A DNA stretch of 64,000 nt from an uncultured Vicinamibacterales bacterium. Lineage in GTDB: Bacteria > Acidobacteriota > Vicinamibacteria > Vicinamibacterales > JAKQTR01. Below the pieces are notes generated by a model that saw nothing but the letters and a program-made list of their open reading frames with translations, had not been told where the DNA came from and made no database searches. Positions 12,191 through 54,748 of this stretch are shown here, one piece after another (positions within the stretch are counted from its first letter, which is position 1; every line of letters starts with the position of its first letter). Where the stretch lies: positions 30,535 through 94,534 of the forward strand of contig CAYZYG010000003.1 in the NCBI GenBank assembly GCA_964481395.1, in the 5' to 3' direction. Position numbers and translations under genes: made by a program.

Positions 12191-12223
12191 GATCGAGCTC
12201 CCTCGCTGCGTCGTGCCCGGTCG

Positions 12224-12823: not shown

Positions 12824-12875
12824 GCGCGTTCTCCTCGCCTGCGAACGGGGGCGGCCGCACTCCAGGCGGCGCCGT

Positions 12876-13424: not shown

Positions 13425-13534
13425 GGCGTGCGACGCTTCTCCAAGGTTGCTGTCAGAAACCGTCAGGCCTTGCATCCCGTATGTGGCCGGCGCAAGCCAG
13501 AAGGTTGGCTGGGGCTGGAAACGCCGCGGCTGAC

Positions 13535-28353: not shown

Positions 28354-28381
28354 ACAGTAGATAGCAGACAGTAGACAGTAG
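28354..28381. repeat. Heptamer tandem repeat ACAGTAG (3 perfect units and 1 degenerate unit, with degenerate flanking units) immediately after the S9 peptidase stop codon
   Basis: ACAGTAG ATAGCAG ACAGTAG ACAGTAG read directly. Followed by purine-rich low-GC sequence and a CCGGAATC x2 direct repeat at 28426-28441. Confidence 0.7.
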
Positions 28382-28463
28382 AAGATACGGCCCAAGACCG
28401 AAGACAAGAAAACGGCAGTCAGGAGCCGGAATCCCGGAATCGGGAGGCGCGCACCACGCAACG

Positions 28464-29786
28464 GTGATGGTGGGAGGGGGACCTGTGTCGTCAGTGGTGA
28501 ACCAGTCGGAGGCCCTCAGATACGCCCTCCTGGGAGAGCGGGAAGTCGCGCAGCCGCCGGGTATCCCGACGGACGTGACGCGGAGGCCCGTGCAGGCGGT
28601 CGGCATCGTGGGGGCCGGCACGATGGGCGCCGGGATCGCCATGTGCTTTGCGAATGCCGGCATCCCTGTCGCCATCCTCGACGCGGACGAGGCCGCGCTC
28701 CAACGGGGCGTCGAGACGATCCGCCGGACCTACGCGTCGGCCGTCAGCCGTGGGTCGCTCTCGCAGGACGCGATGGCCAGCCGCCTGGGCCTCGTGCGCG
28801 CGACCACCTCGCTCGAGGACTTCCGCGAGTCCGACCTCATCGTCGAGGCAGTGTTCGAAGACATCGACGTCAAACGGCAGGTGTTCCGGCAGCTCGACAC
28901 GATCGCCAGGCCCGGGGCGATCCTCGCGACGAACACCTCGTATCTGGATGTGGGAACGCTCGCTGCAGTCACGCGACGGCCGGAGGATGTGATCGGCCTG
29001 CACTTCTTCAGCCCGGCGCACGTCATGCGCTTGCTCGAAGTGGTGCGGACCCCTGCCGTGGCCCAGGACGTCGTCGTCACCGCCATGCACCTGGGAACGA
29101 CCCTCGGCAAGGTGGCCGTGCTCGTCGGGGGCGCGGACGGCTTCGTCGGCAACCGCATGCTCGCCCAGCGCACGCGCGAGGCGTATTTCCTGCTGGAGGA
29201 GGGCGCGCTGCCGGAGCAGGTCGACCGGGTCCTCACCGAATTCGGGTTCCCGATGGGCCCCTTCGCGGTCGGCGATCTGGCCGGCCTGGACATCGGCTGG
29301 CGGAACCGGAAGGCGCGAGCCCACCTGCGCAAGCCGGGCGTGCGAGACTGTGACCTGCTCGACAAGGTCTGCGAGCTGGGACGCCTGGGCCAGAAGACCG
29401 GGGCGGGGTGGTACCGGTACGAGGCGGGCAGCCGGACGCCGATTCCCGATCCTCTCATCGAACGGCTGATCGTCGAGCACTCGAAGCAGGCCGGTATGTC
29501 GCGCCGGGCGATCGGCGACCAGGAGATCCTCGATCGCTGCCTGCTGGCGATGGTCAACGAGGGGGCCAAGATCCTGGAGGAGGGCGTGGCGGCCCGCGAG
29601 GTGGACATCGACATGGTCTGGCTGCACGGCTACAGGTTCCCCTCGTATCGTGGCGGTCCGATGTTCTACGCGCGAGCCAGAGGATTCGGCGAGGTCCTCG
29701 CACGCATCACCGAGTTCCGGGACCGGTTCGGGCCGGATTTCTGGACGCCATCAGAGTGGCTGACCGAACGCGCCCGAGAGCGCTGA
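28464..29786 (+). CDS. 3-hydroxyacyl-CoA dehydrogenase (NAD-binding, FadB C-terminal type, no hydratase domain)
   Basis: Rossmann motif VGIVGAGTMGAGIAMCFANAGIPVAILD, HFFSPAHVMRLLEV, and a duplicated C-terminal dimerisation domain. The true start may be the GTG at 28485, 5 nt after GGGAGGGGG. Confidence 0.85.
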   Translation: MMVGGGPVSSVVNQSEALRYALLGEREVAQPPGIPTDVTRRPVQAVGIVGAGTMGAGIAMCFANAGIPVAILDADEAALQRGVETIRRTYASAVSRGSLSQDAMASRLGLVRATTSLEDFRESDLIVEAVFEDIDVKRQVFRQLDTIARPGAILATNTSYLDVGTLAAVTRRPEDVIGLHFFSPAHVMRLLEVVRTPAVAQDVVVTAMHLGTTLGKVAVLVGGADGFVGNRMLAQRTREAYFLLEEGALPEQVDRVLTEFGFPMGPFAVGDLAGLDIGWRNRKARAHLRKPGVRDCDLLDKVCELGRLGQKTGAGWYRYEAGSRTPIPDPLIERLIVEHSKQAGMSRRAIGDQEILDRCLLAMVNEGAKILEEGVAAREVDIDMVWLHGYRFPSYRGGPMFYARARGFGEVLARITEFRDRFGPDFWTPSEWLTERARER

Positions 29787-29802
29787 TCGAACGGAGACAA
29801 CG

Positions 29803-31002
29803 ATGAGAGAGGCGGTCATCGTCGATGCGGTCCGTACGCCGGTGGGCCGGTACGCGGGCGCGCTGAAGGACGTGCGCGCCGACGACCTCGCGGCGCTGTG
29901 CGTCAGGGCGCTCGTCGACCGGAATCGACTGGATCCGGGCGCAATCGAAGACGTCATCTTCGGGTGCGCCAATCAGGCGGGAGAGGACAACCGGAACGTC
30001 GCCCGCATGGCGGCACTCCTGGCGGGACTGCCGGTGAGAGTGCCGGGACTCACCGTCAACCGGCTTTGTGCCTCGGGCCTGAGTGCGGTGGTCAGCGCGG
30101 CCCACGCCATCCGGAACGATGAAGGCGACGTGTTCATCGCCGGCGGTACCGAGTCGATGACCCGGGCGCCCTTCGTGATCGGCAAGTCTCCAACCGCGTT
30201 TTCGCGGGACATGCAGGTTTATGACTCGACGATCGGCTGGCGGTTCGTCAATCCGCGGCTGGCCGAGGCGTATCCTCCCACCAGCCTCGGAGAGACAGCC
30301 GAAAACGTGGCAGAGCGGTATGGGGTGACCCGCCTGGAGTCGGACGAGTTCGCGCACGCGACCCAGCAGAAATGGGGCGCAGCCCACGCAGCTGGCACGT
30401 TCCGCGACGAACTGATTCCCGTCACGGTGCCGCAGGGCCGCCAGGAACCCGTCATCGTCGATCGAGACGAGCATCCCCGCCCGGACGTGACGATGGAGCA
30501 ACTCGCCAGGCTGCCGCCAGCCTTCAAGAAGGGCGGCATCGTGACGGCCGGCAATGCCAGCGGCGTCAACGACGGCGCCGCGGCCCTGCTGCTGATGGAG
30601 GCGAAGACGGCCGAGCGACTTGGCTGCACGCCAATCGTGCGCATCGTCGCGAGCGGCGTCGAGGGGGTCGACCCGGCGTACATGGGACTCGGACCGATCC
30701 CCGCCACGCGTAAGGCGCTGGCGCGGGCAGGGCTGCAGATTGGCGGCCTCGACCTCGTCGAATTGAACGAAGCGTTCGCGGCGCAGGCGATTCCGTGCAT
30801 CAGGGAACTGGGTCTCGACCCGGCGACGGTGAATGTCAACGGCGGCGCGATCGCCATCGGCCACCCGCTGGGATCCACCGGCGCACGGATCCTCACCACG
30901 CTGGTGCACGAGATGAAGCGCAGGCGGTCTCGATACGGCCTGGTGTCGATGTGCGTCGGCGTCGGCCAGGGCATCGCCATCGTCGTCGAAGGATGCCGGT
31001 AG
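29803..31002 (+). CDS. Acetyl-CoA C-acyltransferase (thiolase)
   Basis: MREAVIVDAVRTPVGRY. Active-site Cys in NRLCASGL. C-terminal NVNGGAIAIGHPLGSTGARI and MCVGVGQG motifs. Confidence 0.9.
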   Translation: MREAVIVDAVRTPVGRYAGALKDVRADDLAALCVRALVDRNRLDPGAIEDVIFGCANQAGEDNRNVARMAALLAGLPVRVPGLTVNRLCASGLSAVVSAAHAIRNDEGDVFIAGGTESMTRAPFVIGKSPTAFSRDMQVYDSTIGWRFVNPRLAEAYPPTSLGETAENVAERYGVTRLESDEFAHATQQKWGAAHAAGTFRDELIPVTVPQGRQEPVIVDRDEHPRPDVTMEQLARLPPAFKKGGIVTAGNASGVNDGAAALLLMEAKTAERLGCTPIVRIVASGVEGVDPAYMGLGPIPATRKALARAGLQIGGLDLVELNEAFAAQAIPCIRELGLDPATVNVNGGAIAIGHPLGSTGARILTTLVHEMKRRRSRYGLVSMCVGVGQGIAIVVEGCR

Positions 31003-37160: not shown

Positions 37161-37747
37161 ATGGCCGCACCGCCGCTCTTTCCGAAGACCCGCGTTCAGA
37201 TCGTGGCGATGATCCACGCCGGCGCGCTGCCGGGGACGCCCGGATCGTCCGCGCCCCTCGACGCCAACCTGAGCGCCGGCGTGGTCGAGACGCTGGCGGA
37301 TCGATGCCGGCGCGCGGACGTCCCGTACGCGCTGGATCCCTCGGCCCACGAGCGATGCACTCGGATCGCCGCCGCTATCCCGGGCTGCGACCTCATCAAG
37401 CCCGACCGCCCGGAGGCAGCGGCCCTCACAGGCCTCAGGTGCGACACGTCGGCGGAAGCCGGGACCTGTGCAGAGGCTCTCATGCTCGCGGCGCACGCCG
37501 CGCCATCGTGAGTCTGGGCGCCGACGGACTCATATTCGACGCGCACGCCGCGCTGCCCGCGCTGCCGACGACGGTGACGGATGTGACGGGCGCTGGAGAC
37601 GCCATGTTCGCGGCGGCGTTCCTGGGCCTGCTCCAGGGACTGCCGACCGAACGCGCCATCGATGCCGGGCGTCGCGCGGCGGCACTGACTCGTGCCGTGC
37701 GTGGCGCCGTGAGCGCGGCCGTCAGCCCGGACCTCTTTCGTGTGTGA
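37161..37747 (+). pseudogene. Mosaic, frameshifted remnant: BtpA-like N-terminus (about 35 codons) joined to the middle and C-terminus of a PfkB-family sugar/nucleoside kinase
   Basis: LFPKTRVQIVAMIHAGALPGTPGS resembles BtpA N-termini. DLIKPDRPEAAALTG is the PfkB mid motif. The frame changes near 37480-37505. The second frame carries IVSLGADG and the PfkB signature DVTGAGDAMFAAAFLG. No PfkB N-terminal region is present. Confidence 0.6.
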
Positions 37748-37967
37748 GCTGTCCATGGACTCCCTGAACCGTCTGCTCGACGTGTCACCGGAAGTCGCCG
37801 AGGCGCTCGCCGATGCTGCGGCGCACGGCGTGAGCGGCAAGGCGCTGACGCCGTACCTGCTGGCCAGGGTCAACGAGCTGACTGGCGGGAGCGCGCTCGC
37901 GGCGAACGTGGCGCTCATCAGGAACAACGCGACGCTGGCCGCGGGAATCGCGGCTGCGCTGGTGTGA
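37740..37967 (+). pseudogene. C-terminal ~70-codon fragment of pseudouridine-5'-phosphate glycosidase (PsuG/IndA family)
   Basis: HGVSGKALTPYLLARVNELTGGSALAANVALIRNNATLAAGIAAAL matches the conserved PsuG C-terminus (G-K-x-x-TP-F/Y-LL...T-G-G-x-S-L-x-x-N...NNA). The roughly 230 N-terminal residues are missing. Confidence 0.55.
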
Positions 37968-38018
37968 CGAGGAGCGGGCTCATTCGACCGGCTGGCGGGT
38001 TCCCAGTCCGCTGCAGGC

Positions 38019-38930
38019 TCAGGCCACGTCGGCCTCGAGGCCGGCGTCGGCGAAGATCGCCAGCGCCCGGTCTACATCCTCGGCCGCCAGCGGAGCTGCG
38101 TCCGGCGGAGGCATCCTGCCGATCTGTTCGTACTTGTCGCGGCCGAGCGGGTGGTAGGGCTGGATCTGCACGCTCGATAGCCGGTGTGCGCGCGCGATGG
38201 CGGCAATGCCGCGGAGGTTCTCCTCGTCGTCGGTGAAGCCCGGAATCAAGGGGACGCGGAGGACGATCTTCGAGCGCGCGGCCGAGGCCAGATCGGCGAG
38301 GTTGCTCACGATCAGCCGATTGTCGGCGCCCGTGACGTGACGATGACGGCCGCCGTCGGCCAGCTTCAGATCGAAGAGGAACAGATCGACCGCGGGCTCC
38401 GCGTCCAGCAGAGCCCGCCGGCTCACGTGCCCGCAGGTTTCGACCGCCGTGCTGATGCCCAGCGCGCGGCAGCGTGCCAGCAGATCGAAGAGGAAGTCCG
38501 GCTGCTCGAACGGCTCGCCGCCCGAGAACGTCACGCCGCCCCCGGAGTTGGCGTAGAACTCCCGGTCGGCCGCCACGCGGGAGACGACGTCGGCGGCGGT
38601 CATCAGTTCCCCGGCCACACTGAGCGCCTGCGAACAACAGGCCTCGACGCACGCCGCGGTGTCGCACCGCGCGCACGTGGAGCGGTCGAAACGCACCGAT
38701 CCGTCCGTCATCTGGACGGCGCCGAGCGGGCACACCCCCGCGCATCGGAGGCAGGCCTGGCAGCGGGTCGCGATACGCCTGAGTTCCGGCCTGTTCGATT
38801 GCGATTCCGGGTTGCAGCACCAGGCGCACGACAGCGGGCAGCCTTTCAGGAACACGAGCGTGCGGATGCCCGGGCCGTCGTGTACGGCGTAGTGCTGGAT
38901 GTCGAAGACGAGTCCGGTCGTGCGGCTCAC
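38019..38930 (-). CDS. Glycyl-radical enzyme activating protein (radical SAM, PFL2-type with two auxiliary ferredoxin-like clusters)
   Basis: The GTG at 38930 overlaps the GRE stop (GTGA). DGPGIRTLVFLKGCPLSCAWCCNPE (CX3CX2C). CQACLRCAGVCP and CARCDTAACVEAC cluster motifs. SGGEP. Confidence 0.9.
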   Translation of the reverse strand: MSRTTGLVFDIQHYAVHDGPGIRTLVFLKGCPLSCAWCCNPESQSNRPELRRIATRCQACLRCAGVCPLGAVQMTDGSVRFDRSTCARCDTAACVEACCSQALSVAGELMTAADVVSRVAADREFYANSGGGVTFSGGEPFEQPDFLFDLLARCRALGISTAVETCGHVSRRALLDAEPAVDLFLFDLKLADGGRHRHVTGADNRLIVSNLADLASAARSKIVLRVPLIPGFTDDEENLRGIAAIARAHRLSSVQIQPYHPLGRDKYEQIGRMPPPDAAPLAAEDVDRALAIFADAGLEADVA

Positions 38931-41413
38931 AGGCAGTGCTCGGTCCGCCAGATCACCTGATCCTGCAGCGCCCGGCTCATCTCGACCCAGTAGGCTGAGA
39001 AGCCCGCGACGCGAACGACGAGGTCGCGGTACTGCTCGGGGTGGTCCTGCGCATCCCGCAGCATTCGCGAGTCGACGACGTTGAACTGCACGTGGAAGCC
39101 GGGCCCCGCGAAGTACGTCTTGATGAGCGCCAGCAGGTTCCGCGACCCCCGCTCGCCCGCGAGGGCGGACGGATGGAACTTGAGATTGAGCAGCCCCCCG
39201 CGGATCTGGGTGTGATCGACCTTCCGCGACGACCGGATGACCGCGGTAGGACCGTGCGTGTCGGTGCCGGGGAACGGCGACGTCACCCCGTCGGCCAGCG
39301 GCTGCGAGGCGAGGCGGCCGTCCGGAAACGCGCCGCACACCTTGCCGAACGGCACGGGCGTCGAGATCGCGAGCATCGACGGATCGTACGGTTCGCCGAG
39401 GTAGTTCTTCTGGCCTCTCACCCACGACACGTAGTCGGCGAAGAGATCGAGGAAGACGCGGTCCACCTCGTCATCGTCGTTGCCCCACTTCGGCGCGTCG
39501 AGGGCGCGCCGGCGCAGTTCGTCGTATCCCTGCCAGTTCGCGGCCACCGCCGCTCTGAGTTCGTCGAGCGTGCACGTGCGGGTCTCGAAACACAGCTTTC
39601 TGATCGCCGCCAGCGAGTTCGCCACGTTGACGAGGCCCGACGACAGCGTGGTCGGCGTGTGGTTGTTGGCCGCCCCGCCGTCGTCCATCGAGCGGCCGCG
39701 GGCGAGGCAGTCGCGCACGAACACCGAGCAGAACACGAGGGGCACCGTCTGACGGTGGGCCGCCATGACGTAGTTCCAGTACTGCTGCCACGTCCTGACC
39801 GCCGTGTGCATCTTGTCCAGGTAGGACTCCACGACATCGTCGTACGTGGCGACGGGCCGAGGGTCGAACAGGCGAATCGAGGTCGCCGGATCGACCCCGT
39901 CGTGCATCACGAGATCGATCACCTTGCCGTGGTTGACGAAGCCCGCCTGGACGACGCCGTAGGACATGCCGCCGAGGACCGGCTCCGTGCAGCCGCCCAT
40001 CGCGGCGTGCTTGCGCACGACATCGGCGGGAATGCCCGAGGTGGCCGTCTCGTGGGCCACGTACGTCTTCTGGTTGAAGAAGGCCGGATACCCGACGCCG
40101 GTCTTGACGCACTCGGCGGCCTTCAGCAGGAAGCGCTCGGAGAGCGAATCGTCGTACCACACCGACAGCGTCGGCTGGGTCATCTGCATGTTGATCTGCG
40201 CCTGCAGAATCGCCAGCGATACCTCATTGTCGGCGGGGCGGCCATCCTCGTCGACGCCCCCGAGGATCAGGTTCTGGAAGAGGTTGCCGTGCCCGAGCCC
40301 CTGCCAGCTCATGCTGGCGATGTACTCGATCTGGGTCATCTTCACGAACAGCTCTTCGAACAGCTCGACGGCGGCGTCGACGGTGATGTGCGGATCGGCC
40401 GCGTAGTACGGCCAGAGCAGCATGTCGACGCGGCCGGGCGAGAAGCCGAGGTGTGCGCCCTCGAGGTGTCCGAGCAGGTAGGTGAACCAGAAGGATTGAA
40501 CCGCCTCGCGGAAGTTCCGCGGCGGCTCGGCAGGCACCCTCCGGCACGTAGCGGCCATCGCATCGAGCTCGCGGCGGCGCCGCGGATCGGTTTCGAGCGC
40601 TGCCAGGCGCGCGGCTTCCCGGGCGTAGTTCGCCGCGAAGGCCAGCCCGCCTTCGAGCGCGCGACGTGCGGCCCGCCAGAAGTGCAGCGCATCGGCGTCG
40701 TGCGGCCCGGCCGGCCTGAACGTGCGGATGCGTTCGTCGATCTCAGCGATGACGGCCGTGTACCCCCTGGAGAGCGCAGCTTCGTAGTCGAGCACCAGCC
40801 GCCCCTCGGGACACGGGTCGTGCGGCGCGGTGTAGAGTCCGACCGCCCACCCGTCCTCGATGAACCGGGCACCCGGGAACGCCGACTTCCACAGGCGATC
40901 GCCGGCGGCCATCAGGCACTTGTCCTCCCAGTACTCGCAGATCGCGGCCAGCGCCTGGCAATCGGCGGGCGTGATCAGAAACTTGCCCGAGATAATCTCG
41001 TAGCCCTTTTCCTGGGCGGCGCGGCGGGCCTCCGCGATCCCGCCGCCGTGCCCCTGCTCGACGTGCTTCTGCTGCGCGTCCTGCTCCTGGCGGCGAAGCT
41101 CCCGCAGGAACGGCCCCGCGGCGTAGTTGGCGTACGGCACGGCTCCCCGGATGAAGCGGGTCTTGTTGCCGGCCAGGCGGTCCTCCGGATGGATCACGGG
41201 CGTGAGCTGCTCGAGCGCGTACGCGTGGTTGGCCGCCCGGCGCTCGAGGACTTCCATGCCGTCCGAGGCCCGATGCGCATCGGTGAGGCGGCTGATGTAC
41301 TCGATGTCGAGGACCAGCGGCGCGTCGAGGTAGCGGGCCTTGAGAAACGCCGTTCGCGGCGTGCTGGGCGTTCCGATGACTTCTCGCGAAGCAATGCGTG
41401 CGGCAAGGGTCAT
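38927..41413 (-). CDS. Glycyl radical enzyme, PFL2/glycerol-dehydratase-like family, substrate unknown
   Basis: 828 aa. Glycine loop VVRVAGFSAYWVEM near the C-terminus. Cys loop AAMGGCTEPVLGG (thiyl Cys plus Glu). N-terminal pattern as in PFL2-type GREs. Confidence 0.9.
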   Translation of the reverse strand: MTLAARIASREVIGTPSTPRTAFLKARYLDAPLVLDIEYISRLTDAHRASDGMEVLERRAANHAYALEQLTPVIHPEDRLAGNKTRFIRGAVPYANYAAGPFLRELRRQEQDAQQKHVEQGHGGGIAEARRAAQEKGYEIISGKFLITPADCQALAAICEYWEDKCLMAAGDRLWKSAFPGARFIEDGWAVGLYTAPHDPCPEGRLVLDYEAALSRGYTAVIAEIDERIRTFRPAGPHDADALHFWRAARRALEGGLAFAANYAREAARLAALETDPRRRRELDAMAATCRRVPAEPPRNFREAVQSFWFTYLLGHLEGAHLGFSPGRVDMLLWPYYAADPHITVDAAVELFEELFVKMTQIEYIASMSWQGLGHGNLFQNLILGGVDEDGRPADNEVSLAILQAQINMQMTQPTLSVWYDDSLSERFLLKAAECVKTGVGYPAFFNQKTYVAHETATSGIPADVVRKHAAMGGCTEPVLGGMSYGVVQAGFVNHGKVIDLVMHDGVDPATSIRLFDPRPVATYDDVVESYLDKMHTAVRTWQQYWNYVMAAHRQTVPLVFCSVFVRDCLARGRSMDDGGAANNHTPTTLSSGLVNVANSLAAIRKLCFETRTCTLDELRAAVAANWQGYDELRRRALDAPKWGNDDDEVDRVFLDLFADYVSWVRGQKNYLGEPYDPSMLAISTPVPFGKVCGAFPDGRLASQPLADGVTSPFPGTDTHGPTAVIRSSRKVDHTQIRGGLLNLKFHPSALAGERGSRNLLALIKTYFAGPGFHVQFNVVDSRMLRDAQDHPEQYRDLVVRVAGFSAYWVEMSRALQDQVIWRTEHCL

Positions 41414-41509
41414 GCTGATTCCCTGCGGTGTCGGGGGCGGCCTGCCACAGCGGCGGAGTGGACGACCCCGGCTGGACGACTGCAGTGTATCGCGTTTGGC
41501 CGGGTCGGG

Positions 41510-42100
41510 ATGAGAGGGGGGAGTACTGCGTCGGCCTTCCTCGACGGCCTGACTGCGATCGATCGGGCCGGACTTCTCGTGTTCGGTGGGCGGCCGACTC
41601 TGCTCCAGGCGCCGACGAGCGATGGAAGCCGGCTCGGTCGGTTGCTGCAGGCTGTCGAAGGCAGCGGGAGCACGGCTCTCAACGACGCGGTCTTCGCGGC
41701 GCTGCGATTTCGCCAGCCTGGCGACACGCGTGGAACTGTCGTCGTGTTCACGGACGGCGTCGACAACGTCAGTTGGCTCTCAGCGAGCGAGGTCATCGAG
41801 GTTGGGAGGCGATCCGACGCGATCGTTCACGCCGTCGTGATCGGCCGGGCCGGGAGCAACAACGCCCTGTTGCACGAACTCACGCGCGGGAGCGGTGGGC
41901 ACGTGTGGCCCGCCGCGTGGGGACCCAAGCTCGCAGATGCGTTTCGCGCGGTCCTCGACGACCTCCGCTCGCGCTACGTGCTCACGTACTACCCGAAGGA
42001 TGTCGGCACAGACGGTTGGCATGCGCTCGATGTCAAGGTACGGCTCCGACATGTCAGCATCACGCATCGGTCCGGGTACTACAGGCGGGAGCGGCGCTAA
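41510..42100 (+). CDS. vWA-domain protein of the acidobacterial VWFA-related family, apparently 5'-truncated (no signal peptide, no intact MIDAS DxSxS)
   Basis: ASAFLDGLTAIDRAGLLVFGG...GSTALNDAV...VVVFTDGVDNVS...LTRGSGGHVW...LRSRYVLTYYP...HRSGYY match the C-terminal two thirds of the family. Upstream in-frame sequence (CIAFGRVGMRGG) looks like a decayed DxSGSM region abutting the GRE start. Confidence 0.6.
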   Translation: MRGGSTASAFLDGLTAIDRAGLLVFGGRPTLLQAPTSDGSRLGRLLQAVEGSGSTALNDAVFAALRFRQPGDTRGTVVVFTDGVDNVSWLSASEVIEVGRRSDAIVHAVVIGRAGSNNALLHELTRGSGGHVWPAAWGPKLADAFRAVLDDLRSRYVLTYYPKDVGTDGWHALDVKVRLRHVSITHRSGYYRRERR

Positions 42101-42296
42101 TGCCCTGGAACCGTGATGCCTTGCAGAAGTCCCGGAGCGCGGCGCCCGGATGGCAAGGCGCGACGACTGAGCATACTGCCCGTATGTGAGGGAGGAGCAA
42201 CGCTGCCAGGCGGGCTTGTCGCACCTTCTGCCGGAGGTGGCTTCCTTCCACCAGAGGGGTGTCGCGTTCGGCGGCGACGCGCTGGACACTCCGCGC

Positions 42297-44774
42297 TCAG
42301 CGCACGATCTGCTGAAGGACCACGAAATCCGCGTCAGCCCGGGCCAGCAGCGGTCGCAATTCGGCCTCGACCGTGCCGGCGTCGGCGGGGCGTCCCGTCC
42401 GGCGGTACAGCGAGGCCAGCTGGGCCCGTCCGGCCAGCCAGAAGACCTGGGCCGCGCCGCCGGGATGACACACCAGACGGCTGTCCGTGGCCTGCTCGAG
42501 CACCCTCGCCGCCCGCGTCGACTCGCCCCGATCGGCCAGGGCGGACGCAATCTTCCCGGCCAGCCACAGCGTTCTCATGCTGCGGGGGGGAAGCCTGGTC
42601 ACTCTGGCGTGTTCGGCCTCCGTGATGGTCTGCTCGTCCGGGCTGGACGGGAATGCCATCACCTGCGGGAAGTTGCCGAGCAACCCCACACGAGCCAGCG
42701 TCTGCAGGTTCCGCGCGTCGGCTGTTCGGCCGCTGTCAGCCAGCAGCACGACCAACTCCTCGAGGGCCCGGATGTCGGTCGTGGGGATGACGCCCGGCCG
42801 GCGCGCCCGATCGTAGGCGCGCGCCACGTGGCTCCGCAGGGCACGGGTATCTCCCCGCCAGCGCGCAGCCTCGCCGAGGTAGACGTCACGCTCGACGCCC
42901 GCGGGCAGCAACTGGAATGTCCGCTCGGCATCCGCGACACGTCCGAGACCGAGGTGGAACAGCCCGGCGCCGACCAGGTCCGTGGCAGTCGCGTTGGCGT
43001 CGCCGGCGACGCCCGCCACGACGCTGGCGGCCCTCGGCAGATCCCCCTCGACCCAGGCTTCGCAGGCTGGGAACAGCCGGAGCCACGTACGAAACAGCGG
43101 GAGCGCGGCCGACGGATCGAGGGTGCGCAGCCGTTCGACGAACGGCCTCACCTCCGCCAGCGACATCGCTGATTCCATCATCGCTCGCGCGGCGGCGAGG
43201 TTGGACGTGAAGTCGTTCGGCCGCAGGGCGGCCTCGCGCAACGCGAGAGACCGGACGGCTTCACGGGGGCCGATCCTGCCGACCGCCATCCGCACGTTGC
43301 GCAAGCTCCAATGGTCGTCGGGGTAGAGCCGCAAAACCGTCTCGTACTCCGTCACCGCCTTGGCGTCATCGCGGATCATCGAGTAGTAGCTGCCGCGGAT
43401 GAATCCCCGCTCGCGTTCGGTGGTCTGGTCGGCCAGATCCCACGCGCGTCTCGCATGCGCCACGCACTCGGCTTCCGCGTGATCCGTGTTCCACAGGGCC
43501 CACGCCAGGAGGATGTGCGCCATGGCGAAACCGGGATCGGTCTCGACCGCCCGCGAGAGCAGGCCGACGGCGGTCTGCCACGCGCCCTCGTTCACAGCCG
43601 CCATGCCGGCCGTGTAGAGCTGGAGGGCATGCATCGAGGGCGTGGTGACCCGCTCAAGAGGCGGGCGCGAGCCTCGGATCCGCCGGGCCTCCTCCCCCAG
43701 GCTCGCGCGAATACGATCGGCGATGGAGCGCAGTGCCGCCGGCAGGGCGGCGACATCGGGCGCGCGCGCGTTCCCCGCGAACACCACCCGGCCGTCGGCC
43801 GCCGGATCGAGCAAGGAAACGGAGACGAGCAGGTCCGAGGCGAGCGTCTCGGTCCGGCCGATCACGAGACCCCTGATGCCCCCGTCGCGCCGGCACACCT
43901 CGAGACCGACGCCGGCGTCGAGGTCGGCGCCCGCCACCGGATATCCACCCGTCAGCAGGTGCCACAGCAAAACGCCGAGGGCGTAGATGTCGGCCTGCGG
44001 CGTGGCGGGGCCGTCCTCGAAGAGTTCGGGCGCCATGTAGAGCGGCGTGCCTCCCGAGCTGCCGCGCCCGGGCGACGCATCGGAGGCCGGCTGCCCCATC
44101 CCGAAGTCCATCAGGACCAGCCGGCCACCCCGCTCCCGCATCACGTTCCGCGCCTTGACGTCCCGGTGCAGCACGCCCGCCGCGTGCACCGCGGCCAGCG
44201 CACGGCACAGGTCGATCCCCGCCAGTGCGGTTTCCCGCGCACTGAACGGCCCGTGCGCCGTCAGTTCATCTTCGAGCGTCTGCCCGTGCACGTATTCGGT
44301 CCAGATGCCCACGCGGCCGTCGAACGTGCCGGCGCCGTGCACCACGACCACGTTGGGGTGGCGGACCGACGCGAGCAGCTTCCCTTCGCCAACGACGGCG
44401 GCCCCTGCGCCGCCCACCGGATGTGTGCGTCGCAGGAGCTTCAGGGCGACCTCGCGGTCGAGGTGCGGATCCCGGGCGCGGTAGACGTCGGCGAACGATC
44501 CCTGGCCCACCTTCTCGACGAGATCGAGCGGACCCCACCGGCAGGTGCCCGGGTCTTCGGCCTGGCCCGCCGGCGTCGGCACTCCGCTCGCATCCGGGGA
44601 GAGAGGCGCGTCCTGACTGCCTCGGTTCAGCGCGACGATGTCGGCGAGGGTCCTGAGCTCGGCCAGCAGGGCTGGGTCGCCGAGCAATCCGTCCGCCGCT
44701 TCGGCCTCCCAGTCGACACGTCGGCCGTCAAGGATGCGGCCCGCCAGGTCGTCGAGTCGACGGTCGTCGGTCAT
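42297..44774 (-). CDS. Ser/Thr protein kinase with C-terminal TPR-repeat domain
   Basis: Kinase motifs GQGSFADVYRA, VALKLL, HRDVKARNVM, DFGMG, GTPLYMAPE. About 500-aa helical-repeat C-terminus. No TM segment seen. Confidence 0.85.
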   Translation of the reverse strand: MTDDRRLDDLAGRILDGRRVDWEAEAADGLLGDPALLAELRTLADIVALNRGSQDAPLSPDASGVPTPAGQAEDPGTCRWGPLDLVEKVGQGSFADVYRARDPHLDREVALKLLRRTHPVGGAGAAVVGEGKLLASVRHPNVVVVHGAGTFDGRVGIWTEYVHGQTLEDELTAHGPFSARETALAGIDLCRALAAVHAAGVLHRDVKARNVMRERGGRLVLMDFGMGQPASDASPGRGSSGGTPLYMAPELFEDGPATPQADIYALGVLLWHLLTGGYPVAGADLDAGVGLEVCRRDGGIRGLVIGRTETLASDLLVSVSLLDPAADGRVVFAGNARAPDVAALPAALRSIADRIRASLGEEARRIRGSRPPLERVTTPSMHALQLYTAGMAAVNEGAWQTAVGLLSRAVETDPGFAMAHILLAWALWNTDHAEAECVAHARRAWDLADQTTERERGFIRGSYYSMIRDDAKAVTEYETVLRLYPDDHWSLRNVRMAVGRIGPREAVRSLALREAALRPNDFTSNLAAARAMMESAMSLAEVRPFVERLRTLDPSAALPLFRTWLRLFPACEAWVEGDLPRAASVVAGVAGDANATATDLVGAGLFHLGLGRVADAERTFQLLPAGVERDVYLGEAARWRGDTRALRSHVARAYDRARRPGVIPTTDIRALEELVVLLADSGRTADARNLQTLARVGLLGNFPQVMAFPSSPDEQTITEAEHARVTRLPPRSMRTLWLAGKIASALADRGESTRAARVLEQATDSRLVCHPGGAAQVFWLAGRAQLASLYRRTGRPADAGTVEAELRPLLARADADFVVLQQIVR

Positions 44775-44824
44775 GGACTCGTCATCGGACGCGTTGCATC
44801 TCGGCGGCCAGCCGGAGACCCACG

Positions 44825-45349
44825 ATGCCCCATGACTCGCCCCTCACCAACCGCCGCCAGTGGCTGGCTGCTGCCAGCGTCGTCGTCTGCCTCGCCGCGG
44901 CCGCCGCGACGACCATCGCGGCACCGCCAGCCCAGAAAGGCAGCAGGGCCCCCAAACCGCCGTCGACCACGTACACAGGTGCCACGGCCACCTTCGACTC
45001 CAACCCAGGGGACGGTATCCGGGGTGACGGCCAGCCCTATGTCGGCGATCCGGGCTCGAGTACCACCAAAGGCGCCTTCCTCGTGTCGTCGGGCACGTAC
45101 GACGACTTCAGGCTGAAGGTGGCGCCGAAGCCGGACGGTTCGCCGGACCGGTGGCTGACGCTGGACTTCAGGAACATGAGCGTTGCGCCGCCCAACCCCT
45201 GTGGCGGAACCAAGAGGCGTCCGATCGCGTGTCGCAAGGACTTCCTCGAAGTGACAGGCGCACGACGTCGACAGCGCCGGGAGTCCTCCGGAAGTCCTCC
45301 GGAAGTGCCCCCGCCTTCGGACGGGGGGGCCACCCGGCAGGCCCAATAG
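44825..45349 (+). CDS. Hypothetical secreted protein (Tat-like signal)
   Basis: NRRQWLAAASVVVCLAAAAATTIAAP N-terminus and plausible composition for about 140 aa. The C-terminal 30 aa are Arg/Pro-rich, so the 3' end is doubtful. Confidence 0.4.
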   Translation: MPHDSPLTNRRQWLAAASVVVCLAAAAATTIAAPPAQKGSRAPKPPSTTYTGATATFDSNPGDGIRGDGQPYVGDPGSSTTKGAFLVSSGTYDDFRLKVAPKPDGSPDRWLTLDFRNMSVAPPNPCGGTKRRPIACRKDFLEVTGARRRQRRESSGSPPEVPPPSDGGATRQAQ

Positions 45350-45536
45350 GCGGTACGACGGCGGACCCGAGCCTCCCGTTCGCGGTTTGCGAATCTCCCC
45401 GACACGCCGCGGGGCCGGCCTTCGCGGCCGGCCCCGGATGAGTCAGGACACCGAGCGCACCCGGCCGGCAGGCCGAGCCCTCGGATCGCAGCGAATGAAC
45501 GGGAGGCGAATCCGCGGTCAATCCGCGGCTACACAC

Positions 45537-46361
45537 TCAATCCCGCTTGCATGTGCTGGTCTTCGTCGCCAGATCGAACGTGCACGACTGGGTCACCCCG
45601 TTCACCGTCAGCTCGATCCTGACGATGTTCGTGCCGTCGAAGGTTTCCTGGCGCCGGACCGTCAGCGCGCCCCGATCGCCTGGGCCTTTCGTCACCGCCG
45701 TGTGCACGCGAACGCCCGAGAGCGGATACGCAGCGGAACGATCCGCCGGCCGGACGGGCACGACCAGGTTCGTCGTCGCGTCCTCGACGGACGTGTTCGT
45801 CGTGATCTTCGCCCCGTCCCTTCCGGTGACGGTCGTGACGATCGTGCCCTGCTCATTCCCGTTCAACGTGTGCGTCGTGGCATCGGGTCCCAGGCCCGTC
45901 GTCATCATCGTGCCCCGCCGGCTCACCGTGGCTGTGGCGCCGTTCTCGCGCGTGATGGAGCCCTCGGCCGTCGTCTCGGTGCGAATCGCGGCGGTCTGCC
46001 GGTTGCGCGCGGACTGGACGTTGCCGCTGGCGTCGTAGAGCGTGAAGCGCATCGTGAAGGTCATGCCGTCGCGCGTGCGCTCCGGGCACACGAACTGCCC
46101 CGAGGCCGGATCGAAGACGCACGGGTTCTCTGCGCCGGCCGGCGTGTCGGCGGCCGTGACCGCGAACAGCCGGGCGTCGGGATCGGCCAGACCGCCAACC
46201 GTGGTGGTCGGCGTGGAGGGCGCCGTGGGCGTCGGAACCGGCGGCGCCTGGGAGGTGGACGCCGACGACGTGGGTGCCGCGGGCGGACTCTGCTGGCTCG
46301 AGCAACTCGCCACCGTCACGACCAGGATCAGCAGAAACAAACCACGCCAGGTTGCCTTCAC
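45537..46361 (-). CDS. Hypothetical lipoprotein, Thr-rich
   Basis: MKATWRGLFLLILVVTVASC|SSQQ lipobox, Pro/Thr/Ser linker, Thr-rich beta-type body, two Cys pairs. Confidence 0.65.
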   Translation of the reverse strand: MKATWRGLFLLILVVTVASCSSQQSPPAAPTSSASTSQAPPVPTPTAPSTPTTTVGGLADPDARLFAVTAADTPAGAENPCVFDPASGQFVCPERTRDGMTFTMRFTLYDASGNVQSARNRQTAAIRTETTAEGSITRENGATATVSRRGTMMTTGLGPDATTHTLNGNEQGTIVTTVTGRDGAKITTNTSVEDATTNLVVPVRPADRSAAYPLSGVRVHTAVTKGPGDRGALTVRRQETFDGTNIVRIELTVNGVTQSCTFDLATKTSTCKRD

Positions 46362-46614
46362 AGATGCCTCCTCGAGAACAGGCCGGCCGGACGTCCGCAG
46401 ACGGGCCGTCCCTTCCGGATGCAGTGTTTAGACCGGACGGCCGGGCTTGAGGATACACCCGTTACCAGCCTCAGCCCTGACCGGCACCGGCGCGTTCCCG
46501 GAACGGGTCGGCCTCACGACCGGTCCCGCGAGGGGAAATCGAAGGCCCCCGGAAGGTTCGACAGGCAAACGCTCCGCCCTCGGATTCCGTCAAAGCCCAC
46601 AGGCCCCCGCCACA

Positions 46615-46633
46615 GGAGTGTTGTCACAACTCC
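46615..46633. promoter_or_regulatory. 19-bp imperfect palindrome (GGAGTGTTGTCACAACTCC, 2 mismatches; core GTTGT-C-ACAAC) 50 nt upstream of an ADOP permease gene
   Basis: Read directly. This ADOP paralog has no adjacent regulator gene. Confidence 0.25.
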
Positions 46634-46683
46634 GGGATCACCCCGGCTCTAGAGCGGGGGTCTTCTGCACGCGAGGCCAGCCC

Positions 46684-49161
46684 ATGCGTACCATTCTCCG
46701 AGACGTCAGCCACTTCGGCCGGATGCTGGCGAAATCCCCAGGCTTCTTCGCCGTCGCCGTCCTCACCCTCGCCCTCGGCATCGGCGCCAACACCGCCATC
46801 TTCTCGGTCATCAACGCGATGCTGCTGCGGCCGCTGCCGTTCGCGGACCCGGACCGCCTCGTGCGTCTCTTCGAAACCGAGGCCGCCCCGGGGCTGTATC
46901 CCTTCGCCGCGCCTGACTACCTCGACTGGCAGGACCAGAACACGACGCTCGAGGGCATGGCACTGATGGGATGGCCGAACCGGCGCAATGTCAGCGGCGC
47001 CGGCGAGCCGCAGGCGGTGCTGGTGATGCCCGTCGAGGCCGACTACTTCACGGTGCTGGGTGTGCAGCCGCTCCTCGGCCGCGCCTTTGTCCCTGGCGAA
47101 GACGCCGAGGGGCGCGATAACGTCGCGGTGCTCAGCCACGGGTTCTGGCAGCGCCAGTTCGCCGGCGACCCGGGCGTCCTCTCGAAGACCATCCAGCTCA
47201 ACGCACGCACCTTCGCGATCGTCGGCGTGATGCCGCCGTCGCTGACGTACCCGAGCACCGTCGAGGTGTACACGCCGCTCGACATGTCCGTGCAGAACCT
47301 CGGGCCCCGCGGGTCGCACAGCTACCAGGCCATCGGCCGGCTGAAGCCGGGCGTGACCATCGAGCAGGCGGAGGCCGATCTCTCGGTCATCGCCGCGCGA
47401 CTCGAGGAGCAGTACCCGGCCTCGAACGAGCAGGTCGGCGCGGCCGTCCGGTCGATGAGCGAGATCCTGACGCGCAACGCGCGTGAGCCGCTGCTGATCC
47501 TGCTCGGCGCCGTGGCGCTCGTCCTGCTCGTTGCCTGCGCGAACGTCGCCAACCTGCTGCTCATCCGCGCGAGCGGCCGCCGGCGCGAGATCGCCGTCCG
47601 CCTGGCGCTCGGCGCCGGACGCGGCCGCGTCATCCGCCAGCTCCTCACGGAAAGCGTGCTCCTGGCGTCCGCAGGCGCCGCGGCGGGACTCGCCGTGGCC
47701 TGGTGGTCGCTGCGCCTGCTCGCGTCGGGCGCCGTACTGCCCGCGCCTCCGTCGGGTCCGGTGACGATCGACCTGACCGTACTCGCCTTCACCGTCGCCG
47801 CCGCCGTGGCGACGGGCCTGCTCTTCGGCCTCGCACCCGCGTTCCAGGCCACCGGCCTGACGCTGTCCGAGGAGTTGAAGGCGAGCGGCCGAACGGTGCT
47901 CGGCTTCGGCCGGCGCGGCGGGCGACTGCGCGACACGATTGCCGTAGCCGAAATCGCCGTCTCGGTCGCGCTCCTGGTCGCGGCGGGGCTTCTGCTGCGC
48001 AGCTTCGATGAGATGCGCCAGGCCGACATCGGCGTGGAGACCGAGAACGTCCTCACGCTCTCCATCAACCTGCCCGAGGCCGCGTATGCCACGCCCACGG
48101 CCCAGCGGCAGTTCTTCGACAGGCTCACGGCCGATCTGCGGGCCACGCCAGGCATCACGGCGGCCTCGCCCTCGACGCTCATCCCCCTCGAGGGCGGCAG
48201 CAACGGCTACATCACGGTGCCGGGCAGGGATGATGCCGCGCTCAGAAACCAACTGTTCGAGGTCAACTACGTCGGTTTCGACTACTTCACCGTGTACCGC
48301 ATTCCGGTCCTCCAGGGACGGACGTTCACGCCGCAGGATGAGGACGACGCCGTCCGGTTTGCCGAGCGGATCGTCGAGCTGCGCGGCATCCCCGACCCGC
48401 CTCCGGACGCGCTCCAGGATCTCCACCGCGTGGCCGTCATCAACCGCACGATGGCCGAGTTCGTGTGGCCCGGTCAGGATCCGATCGGCCGCACCTTCCT
48501 GGGCGGCGGCCAGGTTCCGGTGACGGTGATCGGCGTGGTCGGCGACGTCAGCGTGCGCGGCGTGCGCGCGGGCAACCTGCCGGGGGCCTACTACGCGTTT
48601 CCGGGCGCGCTCAGCCGGTCGGCTCCCCGCCAACTCTCGGTGAAGGCGAGCGTGCCGCCGACAGGACTGCTCGCGGCGGTCCGGCAGCGCGTGCATGGGC
48701 TCGATCCCACGCTCGCGCTCATCCGGCCGAGGACGATGGACGAGGTCGTGGCGGACGGGATGGAGGACACCAGCGTCCAGACGGGGCTGCTGGGCGTGTT
48801 CGCGGCGCTGGCGGTGCTCCTGGCCTGCGTGGGCCTCTACAGCGTGATGGCGTTCCTCGTGGCGCAGCGGACGCACGAGATCGGGATCCGCACCGCGCTT
48901 GGCGCCGGGCCCGGCGATCTCATGCGCCTCGTCTACCGGCACAGCGTGCGGCTGATCGTCATCGGCCTGGCGGCGGGCATCGGCGGGGCGCTGTGGCTGA
49001 CGCGTCTGCTGCAGAGCCAGCTCTACGGCGTGGCGCCGAACGACCCGGCGACATTCGTCGTGGCCGCTGCGCTCCTCACGCTGGTCGCGCTCGCCGCGTG
49101 CGGCCTGCCCGCCTGGCGCGCCACTCGCGTCAGCCCCATCGTCGCGCTGCGCTACGAGTAG
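46684..49161 (+). CDS. ADOP-family MacB-like permease (no prefix domain, no adjacent regulator)
   Basis: Start trimmed to MRTILRDVSHFGRMLAKSPGFFAVAVLTLALGIGANTAIFSVINAMLLRPLPF. Two FtsX modules. Ends ...PIVALRYE. Confidence 0.9.
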   Translation: MRTILRDVSHFGRMLAKSPGFFAVAVLTLALGIGANTAIFSVINAMLLRPLPFADPDRLVRLFETEAAPGLYPFAAPDYLDWQDQNTTLEGMALMGWPNRRNVSGAGEPQAVLVMPVEADYFTVLGVQPLLGRAFVPGEDAEGRDNVAVLSHGFWQRQFAGDPGVLSKTIQLNARTFAIVGVMPPSLTYPSTVEVYTPLDMSVQNLGPRGSHSYQAIGRLKPGVTIEQAEADLSVIAARLEEQYPASNEQVGAAVRSMSEILTRNAREPLLILLGAVALVLLVACANVANLLLIRASGRRREIAVRLALGAGRGRVIRQLLTESVLLASAGAAAGLAVAWWSLRLLASGAVLPAPPSGPVTIDLTVLAFTVAAAVATGLLFGLAPAFQATGLTLSEELKASGRTVLGFGRRGGRLRDTIAVAEIAVSVALLVAAGLLLRSFDEMRQADIGVETENVLTLSINLPEAAYATPTAQRQFFDRLTADLRATPGITAASPSTLIPLEGGSNGYITVPGRDDAALRNQLFEVNYVGFDYFTVYRIPVLQGRTFTPQDEDDAVRFAERIVELRGIPDPPPDALQDLHRVAVINRTMAEFVWPGQDPIGRTFLGGGQVPVTVIGVVGDVSVRGVRAGNLPGAYYAFPGALSRSAPRQLSVKASVPPTGLLAAVRQRVHGLDPTLALIRPRTMDEVVADGMEDTSVQTGLLGVFAALAVLLACVGLYSVMAFLVAQRTHEIGIRTALGAGPGDLMRLVYRHSVRLIVIGLAAGIGGALWLTRLLQSQLYGVAPNDPATFVVAAALLTLVALAACGLPAWRATRVSPIVALRYE

Positions 49162-50604: not shown

Positions 50605-50984
50605 CGTCGTGTTCCTTTCTTGCGGGCGATCTCGTCGCCCAGCAACGCCTTGATCGCCTCGAGATCGTCGAGTGACAGCTGCCGGTCCTGGGCGAAGAAC
50701 GACACCAGCTCCTGGGGCGAGTTGCCGAAGAACCGGTCGACGAAACTGTGCAGGTAGCTCCGCCGATACTCGTTCATCGAGACCAGCGGGAAGTACTCGT
50801 GGGTCTTGCCGTAGGCCTTGTAGGAGACGAACCCCTTCTTTTCCAGGATGCGGACGATGGTGGAGACCGTGTTGTAGGCCGGCTGGGGTTCGGGCAGCTC
50901 GGCCAGGATGTCCTTGACCAGACCTCGCCCGAGACGCCAGAGGACCTGCATGATCTGCTCCTCGGCTCTGGTGAGTTCCCTCAT
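50601..50984 (-). CDS. BlaI/MecI/CopY-family transcriptional repressor
   Basis: Start trimmed to MRELTRAEEQIMQVLWRLGRGLVKDILAELPEPQPAYNTVSTIVRILEKKGFV. The stop overlaps the blaR1-like start (ATGA). Confidence 0.9.
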   Translation of the reverse strand: MRELTRAEEQIMQVLWRLGRGLVKDILAELPEPQPAYNTVSTIVRILEKKGFVSYKAYGKTHEYFPLVSMNEYRRSYLHSFVDRFFGNSPQELVSFFAQDRQLSLDDLEAIKALLGDEIARKKGTRR

Positions 50985-51006
50985 GCCGCCAATGTCTAAC
51001 GAAATC

Positions 51007-51024
51007 CTTAGTTTGTCAACTAAG
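51007..51024. promoter_or_regulatory. Perfect 7-4-7 palindrome CTTAGTT-TGTC-AACTAAG, plus a third TTAGTT half-site at 51028-51033, in the AT-rich divergent region between the BlaI-like gene and an ADOP permease; candidate BlaI operator
   Basis: Read directly. It lies 23-40 nt upstream of the BlaI start and 100 nt upstream of the ADOP ATG. The flanking TTACA resembles BlaI/MecI TACA/TGTA half-sites. Confidence 0.5.
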
Positions 51025-51123
51025 TTTTTAGTTACATTTCCCTTCCGAAGGTTTTCCGAAGACTGGCGCCCCCGCCTCATCGACGCCAAAACTCCGTTGC
51101 CGCCGTTTCCGTCCAATACGGGC

Positions 51124-54690: not shown

Positions 54691-54748
54691 ACACGGGCGT
54701 GCGCCAGGGGCCGGATCGAGAGGCGGCGCCTTCGGGCAAGGGGGCGGC

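Follow-up and report, generated by a model that had tools for sequence, protein, structure and literature searches.

How is one to read a glycyl radical enzyme (GRE) that is encoded next to its own activase and next to no gene that would tell what it acts upon? The question is raised by a pair of genes on the minus strand of a 64,000-nucleotide stretch of DNA, hereafter the window, from an uncultured Vicinamibacterales bacterium of the Acidobacteriota (assembly GCA_964481395.1, contig CAYZYG010000003.1, positions 30,535 to 94,534). A previous sequence-only reading of the window had described an 828-residue GRE (Cys loop GGCTEP, Gly loop RVAGFSAYW), translationally coupled, through a GTGA overlap, to a radical S-adenosylmethionine (SAM) enzyme with a CX3CX2C motif, and had judged the pair to be an orphan of unassignable substrate, possibly acquired, and unexpected in a genome of otherwise aerobic-soil type. 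The coordinates and all of the motifs so described are correct (Table 1), while the judgement needs to be revised in several respects. The phylogeny places the GRE in an uncharacterised clade, here called Gln-type, that is sister to indoleacetate decarboxylase (IAD) and 4-hydroxyphenylacetate decarboxylase (HPAD), and the pair is, with reasonable though far from full confidence, predicted to be a functional, vertically maintained GRE system, representing an IAD-like arylacetate decarboxylase.

Placement of the enzyme and its activase

As to the state of the cassette, both genes are intact, encode all of the catalytic motifs and are under purifying selection, with dN/dS, calculated against L084 (a relative at 93% nucleotide identity), amounting to 0.13 in the GRE and 0.23 in the activase. 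The stop codon of the former and the GTG start of the latter overlap as GTGA, within CTGTGAGC. The larger protein is a member of the GRE superfamily, with the barrel, the RVxG motif and the mid-barrel catalytic Cys loop all present. It is recognized by the Pfam models PFL-like (PF02901, E=7e-143) and Gly_radical (PF01228, E=1.6e-29), and its AlphaFold model (pTM 0.89, pLDDT 84.6) matches the solved GREs with a TM score of about 0.86. The Cys-loop motif shows no variation among 57 family members, nor among about 70 loci, and the Gly loop is invariant across the family, both regions being almost invariant among the loci of the GTDB scan described below. Likewise, the three glycines of the GGG motif (G123-G125) are invariant in the family alignment, and in the alignment with IAD and HPAD the motif matches QGGGF and TGGGN, respectively. 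The smaller protein passes the curated model TIGR02494 (PFLE_PFLC) with 328.3 bits versus a cut-off of 174.35. As had been described, the GRE is of the CxE type, and its cognate activase has three clusters. The enzyme is also not a pyruvate formate-lyase (PFL), as had been concluded before: its loop contains a single Cys, and the PFL model TIGR01255 produces only 107 bits versus a cut-off of 994.

As to the family within the superfamily, whole-protein scores were compared with the cut-offs of the curated NCBIfam models. The best model is IAD (NF033718; 753.4 bits versus a cut-off of 1100), with a wide margin over the next two, the PFL2/glycerol-dehydratase subfamily (PFL2-3; 487.2 versus 678.2) and HPAD (NF033715; 483.3 versus 1150), and over HpfG/HpsG (404.4 versus 1000), HypD (401.1 versus 1100) and CutC (371.8 versus 1050). 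Among the solved structures, searched for in the PDB by both sequence and fold, none is closer than about 30% identity to the GRE, and the N-terminal 150 residues are included in the alignment of one solved GRE only, HPAD (from residue ~17 to the C-terminus). The isolation of the clade is evident from an exhaustive HMMER search among 1.84 billion cluster representatives: past a single one at 59% identity (P0121), the next full-length proteins are at about 40%. One of the latter, P0124 (40% identity), passes the IAD cut-off (1187.7 versus 1100 bits), and another protein, P0174, is a bona fide HPAD (1725 bits). In neighbour-joining trees with 200 bootstrap replicates, the window GRE forms a clade with P0121, P0122 and P0125 (bootstrap of 100%), the IAD and the HPAD-like proteins form a second clade (99%), and the two clades are sisters (93%), while PhdB is found elsewhere in the tree. 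The substrate is, therefore, less unassignable than had been assumed, as this phylogeny, along with the mapping of the active site, points to the IAD/HPAD decarboxylase branch.

The Gln-type clade is widespread in uncultured anaerobic bacteria and has never been characterised. More than 300 homologues of about 828 residues are present in the protein database at 68-95% identity, and a protein identical to the window GRE is encoded on 13 independent metagenome contigs. A scan of the GTDB species representatives uncovered 76 loci at 60-82% identity, every one of them from a metagenome-assembled genome (MAG), with hosts that include Vicinamibacterales, Aminicenantes, Thermoanaerobaculaceae, Holophagaceae, many Bacteroidales, Myxococcota, Elusimicrobia, Omnitrophota, and others. 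Not a single cultured isolate is present among the GRE relatives recovered, all of which originate from MAGs or metagenome contigs. The peptide patterns of the scan also caught a different GRE family, outside the Gln-type clade, in unclassified MAGs (L077-L083; 35-38% identity, Gly loop RVAGYSDYF).

Active site, predicted reaction and competing explanations

The pocket of IAD has been described for the enzyme OuIAD, with Cys500 as the catalytic Cys, Glu502 as part of the CxE motif, Arg226 stacked on the ring of the indole, Trp392 as the gate of the substrate channel, a hydrophobic cage of Phe401, Phe517, Leu616, Leu730, and Ile731, and Ala396 facing the bulky ring (PMC13232127, PMC6181972, PMC9248008). 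His514, conserved in IADs, is hydrogen-bonded to the N-H of the indole (PMC13232127, PMC9248008). In a MAFFT alignment of the window GRE with the IAD-class P0124, in which each OuIAD residue was checked by local offset, 10 of the 13 active-site residues are identical: Arg226 corresponds to Arg205 in the window GRE, Trp392 to Trp370, Phe401 to Phe379, Cys500 to Cys475, Glu502 to Glu477, Phe517 to Phe492, Leu616 to Leu590, Leu730 to Leu681, Ile731 to Ile683, and Gly853 to Gly804. Three residues are different, Ala396, Cys223 and His514 being replaced by Gly374, Pro202 and Gln489, respectively. The mapped positions are invariant in the 57 family members, with the exception of Phe379 (Phe or Tyr), and, among 122 full-length representatives, the pocket fingerprint is common to only the Gln-type clade and IAD. 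Beyond the pocket, the agreement is partial: the N-terminal region and the region of extension 1, an active-site cap described in the OuIAD cryo-EM preprint (PMC13232127), align with IAD/HPAD, the conserved GGG motif included, while the N-terminus is shorter by about 25 residues and extension 2 is absent. The mapping of active-site residues that had been proposed as a check, carried out here by sequence alignment, thus reveals a hydrophobic pocket of the IAD type, with a Gln substituting for the His.

If the enzyme functions according to established GRE chemistry, the [4Fe-4S] cluster held by the CX3CX2C motif of the activase would reductively cleave SAM, with electrons supplied via the two auxiliary clusters, and a hydrogen of the GRE residue Gly804 would be abstracted by the activase, the resulting glycyl radical generating a thiyl radical on Cys475. 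Judging from homology and from the pocket, this radical would then decarboxylate an arylacetate whose ring is bulky and probably either bicyclic or heteroatom-bearing. Cation-pi stacking on Arg205 would hold this ring within a cage of Phe379, Phe492, Leu590, Leu681, and Ile683, with Trp370 serving as the gate of the channel, while the carboxylate would be positioned at Cys475, with Glu477 acting as an acid for this Cys, as is now proposed for both IAD and HPAD. Gln489 would take over the hydrogen-bonding role of the IAD His514, and the reaction would yield CO2 along with a methyl-arene, the latter being a volatile dead end. Of these predictions, the class, an arylacetate decarboxylase, is the one that we consider probable. 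Indole-3-acetate would be the simplest candidate substrate, because the pocket with Gly374 should be at least as roomy as that of IAD, and because a ring N-H or O-H can donate a hydrogen bond to Gln489; even as the most parsimonious choice, however, the conversion of indoleacetate specifically, into skatole, is proposed here only tentatively.

A number of observations weigh against an IAD-like function. One is that the GRE scores below every curated family cut-off with which it was compared, including the one for IAD (753 versus 1100 bits), and, with about 40% identity to the IAD-class P0124, it also falls outside the IAD sequence-similarity-network cluster, as delimited at >~50% identity by Liu et al. 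(2018). Another is that the Gln-type clade groups with IAD alone in only 2 of the 200 bootstrap replicates, and is thus not nested inside IAD; as the clade is sister to IAD and HPAD together, the shared pocket may be ancestral, and would then have little to say on the exact substrate. The sequence-only reading had named nesting inside a characterised clade, with all substrate-binding residues conserved, as evidence against its own view, and the tree places the protein outside the IAD plus HPAD clade. A third example is the position of IAD His514/His515, a hallmark of IADs, which is occupied by Gln489, invariant in the Gln-type clade; in OuIAD, the H514A substitution lowers the kcat 66-fold and raises the Km 70-fold (PMC9248008). 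The GRE is also devoid of extension 2 (about 22 residues), located between beta7 and beta8 in the IAD/HPAD subclass (PMC13232127), and of about 25 N-terminal residues of IAD/HPAD. The residue mapping itself is based on an alignment with a representative of the IAD family and on published descriptions of the OuIAD structure, and two loops bearing pocket residues, 367-376 and 686-690, are of low confidence in the AlphaFold model. Finally, no gene for forming or importing an arylacetate is consistently linked across the family loci.

Alternatively, the enzyme may be one of the decarboxylase branch with a new chemistry or with a new substrate, different from the three known arylacetates. The substrate might then be some other heteroaryl- or alkyl-acetate or an aromatic acid derived from plants or lignin, or the reaction might not be a decarboxylation at all. 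The Gln-type proteins form a separate, deep clade (100%) that is sister to IAD plus HPAD, not nested; the replacements of His by Gln and of Ala396 by Gly are invariant, and extension 2 is lost; the clade is represented by MAGs and metagenome contigs only, and not by the gut Clostridia and Coriobacteriia that hold IAD (PMC6181972). In addition, conservation across phyla is very high, about 70%, suggesting a specific and widely useful reaction. On the other hand, the identical residues, 10 out of 13, include the cation-pi Arg and the whole of the hydrophobic cage, and no neighbourhood points to a different substrate. A new substrate or chemistry is, therefore, a possibility to be kept in mind, but one to which we assign a rather low probability.

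A 1,2-eliminase or an isomerase-type GRE, be it a dehydratase or a C-N or C-S lyase, akin to glycerol dehydratase, propanediol dehydratase, CutC, HypD, IslA, HpsG or YbiW-like enzymes, in which Glu477 would act as a base on a substrate hydroxyl, appears unlikely. The CxE motif is indeed common to these enzymes, and it was this motif that had previously left two options, 1,2-eliminase or decarboxylase. Moreover, by raw score, the PDB matches are topped by glycerol dehydratase, CutC and propanediol dehydratase. However, the identity of these matches is no more than 28-30%, they are confined to residues ~145-828, and their ranking may partly reflect the fact that no IAD entry is present among the matches. 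The CutC, HypD and HpfG/HpsG models reach only 372-404 bits, versus cut-offs of 1000-1100 and versus the 753 bits for IAD, and the tree joins the clade to IAD and HPAD with a bootstrap of 93%. The pocket, as mapped, has a hydrophobic and aromatic character, a Leu being present at the position of the HPAD Glu637, and neither shell genes nor genes for aldehyde processing are found in about 70 loci. Of the two options, it is the decarboxylase branch that is retained, by virtue of the tree and of the best-scoring model, and the eliminase that is disfavoured.

Gene surroundings and history of the locus

Is the absence of pathway genes a peculiarity of the window? The answer is provided by the family loci, in which neighbours were searched for by clustering of open reading frames (ORFs), by codon-usage-trained gene calls, and by Pfam analysis of 109 immediate neighbours. 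GRE and activase are adjacent in 65 of the 70 family loci, while no Pfam family is found in more than four of the 109 immediate neighbours and no other gene cluster in more than ten loci. Microcompartment shell genes and aldehyde-processing genes are not found in about 70 loci, shell genes are not found in the window, and no conserved small ORF that could encode an HPAD-type small [4Fe-4S] subunit is found beside the cassette in the family loci. A histidine kinase gene is present in ten loci, in variable positions, and an amino-acid permease gene adjoins the cassette in only three. The surroundings of the distant clade members P0121 and P0122 are uninformative, and no synteny of the window flanks was detected with 77 other family loci. 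The orphan state of the GRE and the activase is thus a property of the whole family: the absence of pathway genes stands as first described, while the oddity that the word orphan implied does not, a lone pair being the norm. The same two-gene organisation is known for PhdB and for the Clostridium scatologenes IAD, CsIAD (PMC6181972). Such a state would be expected from a terminal decarboxylation whose volatile product is a dead end, so that no transporter, microcompartment or downstream gene would need to travel with the cassette.

Two kinds of hydrolases are found upstream of the GRE gene in some loci. In seven Bacteroidales loci (L017, L018, L020, L047, L048, L050, and L052) a gene for an alpha/beta-fold hydrolase is located directly upstream, on the same strand, and in the second population variant described below an unrelated PF00756 esterase gene (L001, 4286-5128) is located upstream in divergent orientation. 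It is conceivable that an upstream hydrolase frees an arylacetate from an ester or a conjugate. An apparent neighbour cluster of 21 loci was rejected, as it consisted of antisense ORFs of the GRE gene itself.

Table 1. The cassette, its motifs and the two flanks, in positions of the window
Feature	Position	Strand	Basis or remark
Decayed, frameshifted psuK (PfkB) and C-terminal psuG (Indigoidine_A) remnant	37161..37967	+	Flank, outside the cassette
GRE-activating radical SAM enzyme, 303 aa, GTG start at 38930	38019..38930	-	TIGR02494
Activase eight-Cys ferredoxin-like insert (C57-C98), two auxiliary [4Fe-4S] clusters	38637..38762	-	Pfam Fer4_12, Fer4_10
Activase radical SAM cluster motif CPLSCAWC (CX3CX2C; C31/C35/C38)	38817..38840	-	
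Glycyl radical enzyme (GRE), 828 aa	38927..41413	-	Pfam, NCBIfam, homologues, tree
GRE glycyl radical loop RVAGFSAYW (Gly804)	38987..39013	-	Translation; family-invariant
GRE Gln489, family-invariant, at the position of IAD His514	39947..39949	-	MAFFT mapping to P0124
GRE Cys loop GGCTEP (thiyl-radical Cys475, Glu477 of CxE)	39980..39997	-	Translation
GRE GGG motif QGHGGGI, residues 120-126, in the region aligned with extension 1	41036..41056	-	Translation, alignment
115-bp conserved region upstream of the GRE gene, presumed promoter and ribosome-binding site	41414..41528	-	blastn; promoter role inferred
5'-truncated vWA pseudogene fragment	41531..42100	+	Pfam VWA_2 positions 31-106 of 107; flank, outside the cassette

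In the window, the PfkB gene to the left of the cassette is split over two frames (37161-37511 and a C-terminal part ending at 37747), and Indigoidine_A/PsuG is reduced to its last ~57 residues (37740-37967); further to the left are genes for a beta-lactamase-family serine hydrolase, a 5'-nucleotidase, a DUF3237 protein and a class IV aminotransferase. To the right, the vWA fragment is without its first third, and beyond it lies a gene for a Ser/Thr kinase with TPR repeats. L001 and L084 have intact vWA genes, the 3' half of which matches the fragment with 89% nucleotide identity. No gene for a shell protein or a transporter and no pathway gene is found next to the pair in the window. Thus, the sequence-only reading described the flanks faithfully, with decayed genes on the left, a 5'-truncated vWA gene on the right, and no shell, transporter or pathway gene to accompany the pair.

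The origin of these flanks becomes apparent from the loci L084 and L085 (95% amino-acid and 93% nucleotide identity), in which the cassette is found at the same locus. One side there carries genes for an extracytoplasmic function (ECF) sigma factor, a 1005-residue kinase and a DUF6841 protein, an intact vWA gene and a TPR gene, and the other side carries an ORF of 143 residues and the intact genes for a 305-residue Indigoidine_A and a 297-residue PfkB. Compared with this arrangement, the window has lost the sigma factor, ~176 kinase codons, DUF6841, the 5' part of vWA and the TPR gene, along with the 143-residue ORF and most of psuG, and its psuK is frameshifted. The region of erosion, from the comparison of window positions 37161-46800 with L084 positions 1-15485, spares the cassette. 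The kinase with TPR repeats (42297-44774, minus strand) has 825 residues in the window versus 1005 in L084, with an internal stretch of ~528 bp missing by blastn.

A second variant of the right flank is present in the population. The loci L001, L002 and L004, 99.9% identical elsewhere, have kept the vWA, TPR and esterase genes, and the kinase block is absent from them. By blastn, the region upstream of the GRE gene is 99.9% identical to L001-L004 up to 41528, where the identity breaks, and the alignment with L084 extends to 41526. Three independent assemblies (L003, L005, and L006) share the junction at 41528/41529 and so confirm it. The polymorphism covers window positions 41529-45395 versus L001 positions 2165-5196, that is, the 3' fragment of vWA and the Ser/Thr kinase gene versus the intact vWA, TPR and PF00756 esterase genes. 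As the shared part of vWA is only 89% identical, recombination with a diverged lineage is suggested as the source of this polymorphism. The cassette itself is common to the two population variants (99.9-100% identity). The GC content is about 69% throughout the window, the GC content of the cassette and its GC at third codon positions (GC3) being typical of the window, and a search of the window revealed no tRNA genes and no terminal repeats of mobile elements, only repeats at chance level.

Overall, the flanks result from lineage-specific deletions around a conserved, vertically maintained cassette, and not from a recent insertion. The sequence-only reading had suspected acquisition or rearrangement: the latter is supported, the window flanks being deletion derivatives of an L084-type arrangement, while the former, as a recent event, is not supported, given the typical GC, the lack of tRNA genes or mobile repeats, and the presence of the cassette at the same locus in a 93%-identical relative in which vWA, TPR, PsuG and PsuK are all intact, intact flanks in relatives being what that reading itself had named as evidence to the contrary. 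That the pair may be a recently acquired or decaying remnant of a genomic island, with no current function, as pseudogenes on both sides and a structurally polymorphic right flank might be taken to imply, is highly improbable and already largely refuted, given the low dN/dS values with all motifs intact, the matching GC and GC3 and the lack of tRNA genes and mobile-element-type repeats, the intact locus in the relative, and the retention of a nearly identical cassette by both population variants.

As to the remaining contents of the window, these do not support the notion of an oxygen-labile enzyme in an aerobic-soil-type genome. A gene for a multihaem cytochrome c of ~600 residues (2324-4123, minus strand) suggests that the organism is capable of anaerobic respiration; the protein begins with a signal-peptide-like stretch, carries five CXXCH haem-binding motifs and is weakly matched by Cytochrome_C7. 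Another radical SAM protein, of ~573 residues and unrelated to GRE activases, is encoded 13 kb from the cassette (54686-56407, plus strand). As the GRE relatives all come from MAGs or metagenomes and nothing in the window supports a strictly aerobic lifestyle, the GRE is not out of place. Five genes for MacB_PCD/FtsX permeases, several of them module-duplicated (405-1604, 5440-8130, 46447-49161, 50878-53661, and 62009-64000), are present, along with a gene for a CarboxypepD_reg TonB-dependent receptor. Duplicated MacB/FtsX permeases (the ‘acidobacterial duplicated orphan permease’ pattern) and CarboxypepD_reg TonB receptors are typical of Acidobacteriota. Genes for a 3-hydroxyacyl-CoA dehydrogenase and a thiolase are located 8-10 kb from the GRE gene (28365-31002, plus strand), homologues of both being found at a similar distance from the GRE gene in L023 (11999-14326). 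The thiolase is 73-77% identical to proteins of many anaerobic phyla, closest to anaerobic lineages, and is uninformative for taxonomy; its homologues are named 3-oxoadipyl-CoA thiolase by JGI (PaaJ/PcaF-like). This proximity may be fortuitous, or it may represent a weak connection with aromatic-acid metabolism.

Known glycyl radical decarboxylases and the Gln-type clade

The known GRE decarboxylases produce toxic or malodorous volatiles, p-cresol, toluene and skatole, and whether they do so by a Kolbe-type mechanism or by hydrogen-atom transfer is a matter of debate. To our knowledge, only two metagenomic samples have yielded PhdB, and both IAD and HPAD belong essentially to the gut and to Clostridia. 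The window cassette emerges as a candidate for a fifth family of such decarboxylases, only four having been characterised (review PMC13450708). One may speculate, although we assign it a rather low probability, that the Gln-type clade is a fifth and environmentally dominant family, with its own substrate specificity, and that it accounts for biogenic volatile aromatics in anoxic habitats; if so, uncultured Acidobacteriota, Bacteroidales, Myxococcota and Elusimicrobia would be the carriers, and toluene, skatole or cresol-type compounds the volatiles. Be it as it may, the clade represents a natural relative of IAD with Gln in place of His514 and with no extension 2, which may be used for probing the mechanism, it offers a concrete candidate for where the volatile aromatics of anoxic environments come from, and its GREs are possible biocatalysts for aromatic hydrocarbons. 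For annotation, the implication is that ‘orphan’ pairs of GRE and activase are normal for the Gln-type and need not mean an incomplete island.

How does the window GRE compare with each of the known systems? One of them is the arylacetate decarboxylase AAD (PDB 7E7L), which it would resemble, if the predicted activity is correct, in being a GRE decarboxylase with no small subunit. The match to AAD, however, is of 335 bits over residues 203-825 only, with no similarity in the N-terminal or the extension-1 regions; both PAD and AAD are without the extensions of IAD/HPAD (PMC13232127).

The toluene synthase system of PhdB (PAD) and PhdA offers an analogy in its biology, with a stand-alone GRE and activase, uncultured Acidobacteria as hosts, anoxic habitats, a similar protein length and, as predicted for the window GRE, a hydrophobic arylacetate as the substrate. 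The Acidobacteria host and the stand-alone cassette had even suggested that the window GRE is a PhdB. PhdB possesses CXQ (Gln484), Trp495 (C+13) and Tyr691 (PMC7079210), and the window GRE possesses CTE, Val488 and Leu681 instead, so this identity is ruled out. An initial match of the PhdB His327 to His321 of the GRE was lost when the alignment was inspected by eye with P0245, His327 then corresponding to Phe324. This P0245 (826 residues), which carries the full PhdB fingerprint (Cys469, Gln471, Trp482, and Gly802, each 13 below its number in PhdB), reaches a score of only 352 bits and is distant from the window GRE in the tree. It appears to represent the PhdB/PAD cluster, and may be a useful reference in searches for toluene synthases.

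HPAD (HpdB/CsdB; PDB 2Y8N/2YAJ) belongs to the same superclade, and the equivalent of its Arg223, the CxE and the GGG motif of extension 1 are all present in the window GRE. In contrast to HPAD, the window GRE has Leu590 in place of the phenol-binding Glu637 and Leu322 in place of Ser344, is without the insertion of ~20 residues that follows the Cys loop and carries His536, and is not accompanied by a gene for the small [4Fe-4S] subunit.

Finally, the system with the best-scoring curated model is IAD (OsIAD/OuIAD). The differences are Gln489 in place of His514, Gly in place of Ala396, an overall identity of about 40%, and the hosts, uncultured Acidobacteriota, Bacteroidales and Myxococcota known from MAGs versus gut Clostridiales and Coriobacteriales (PMC6181972). 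The similarities are the same length of the Cys loop, the Phe at C+17 and the Glu of CxE, identical pocket residues (Arg, the Trp gate, Phe, Leu, Leu, and Ile), the absence of a small subunit, an activase with two auxiliary clusters, and the same two-gene cassette.

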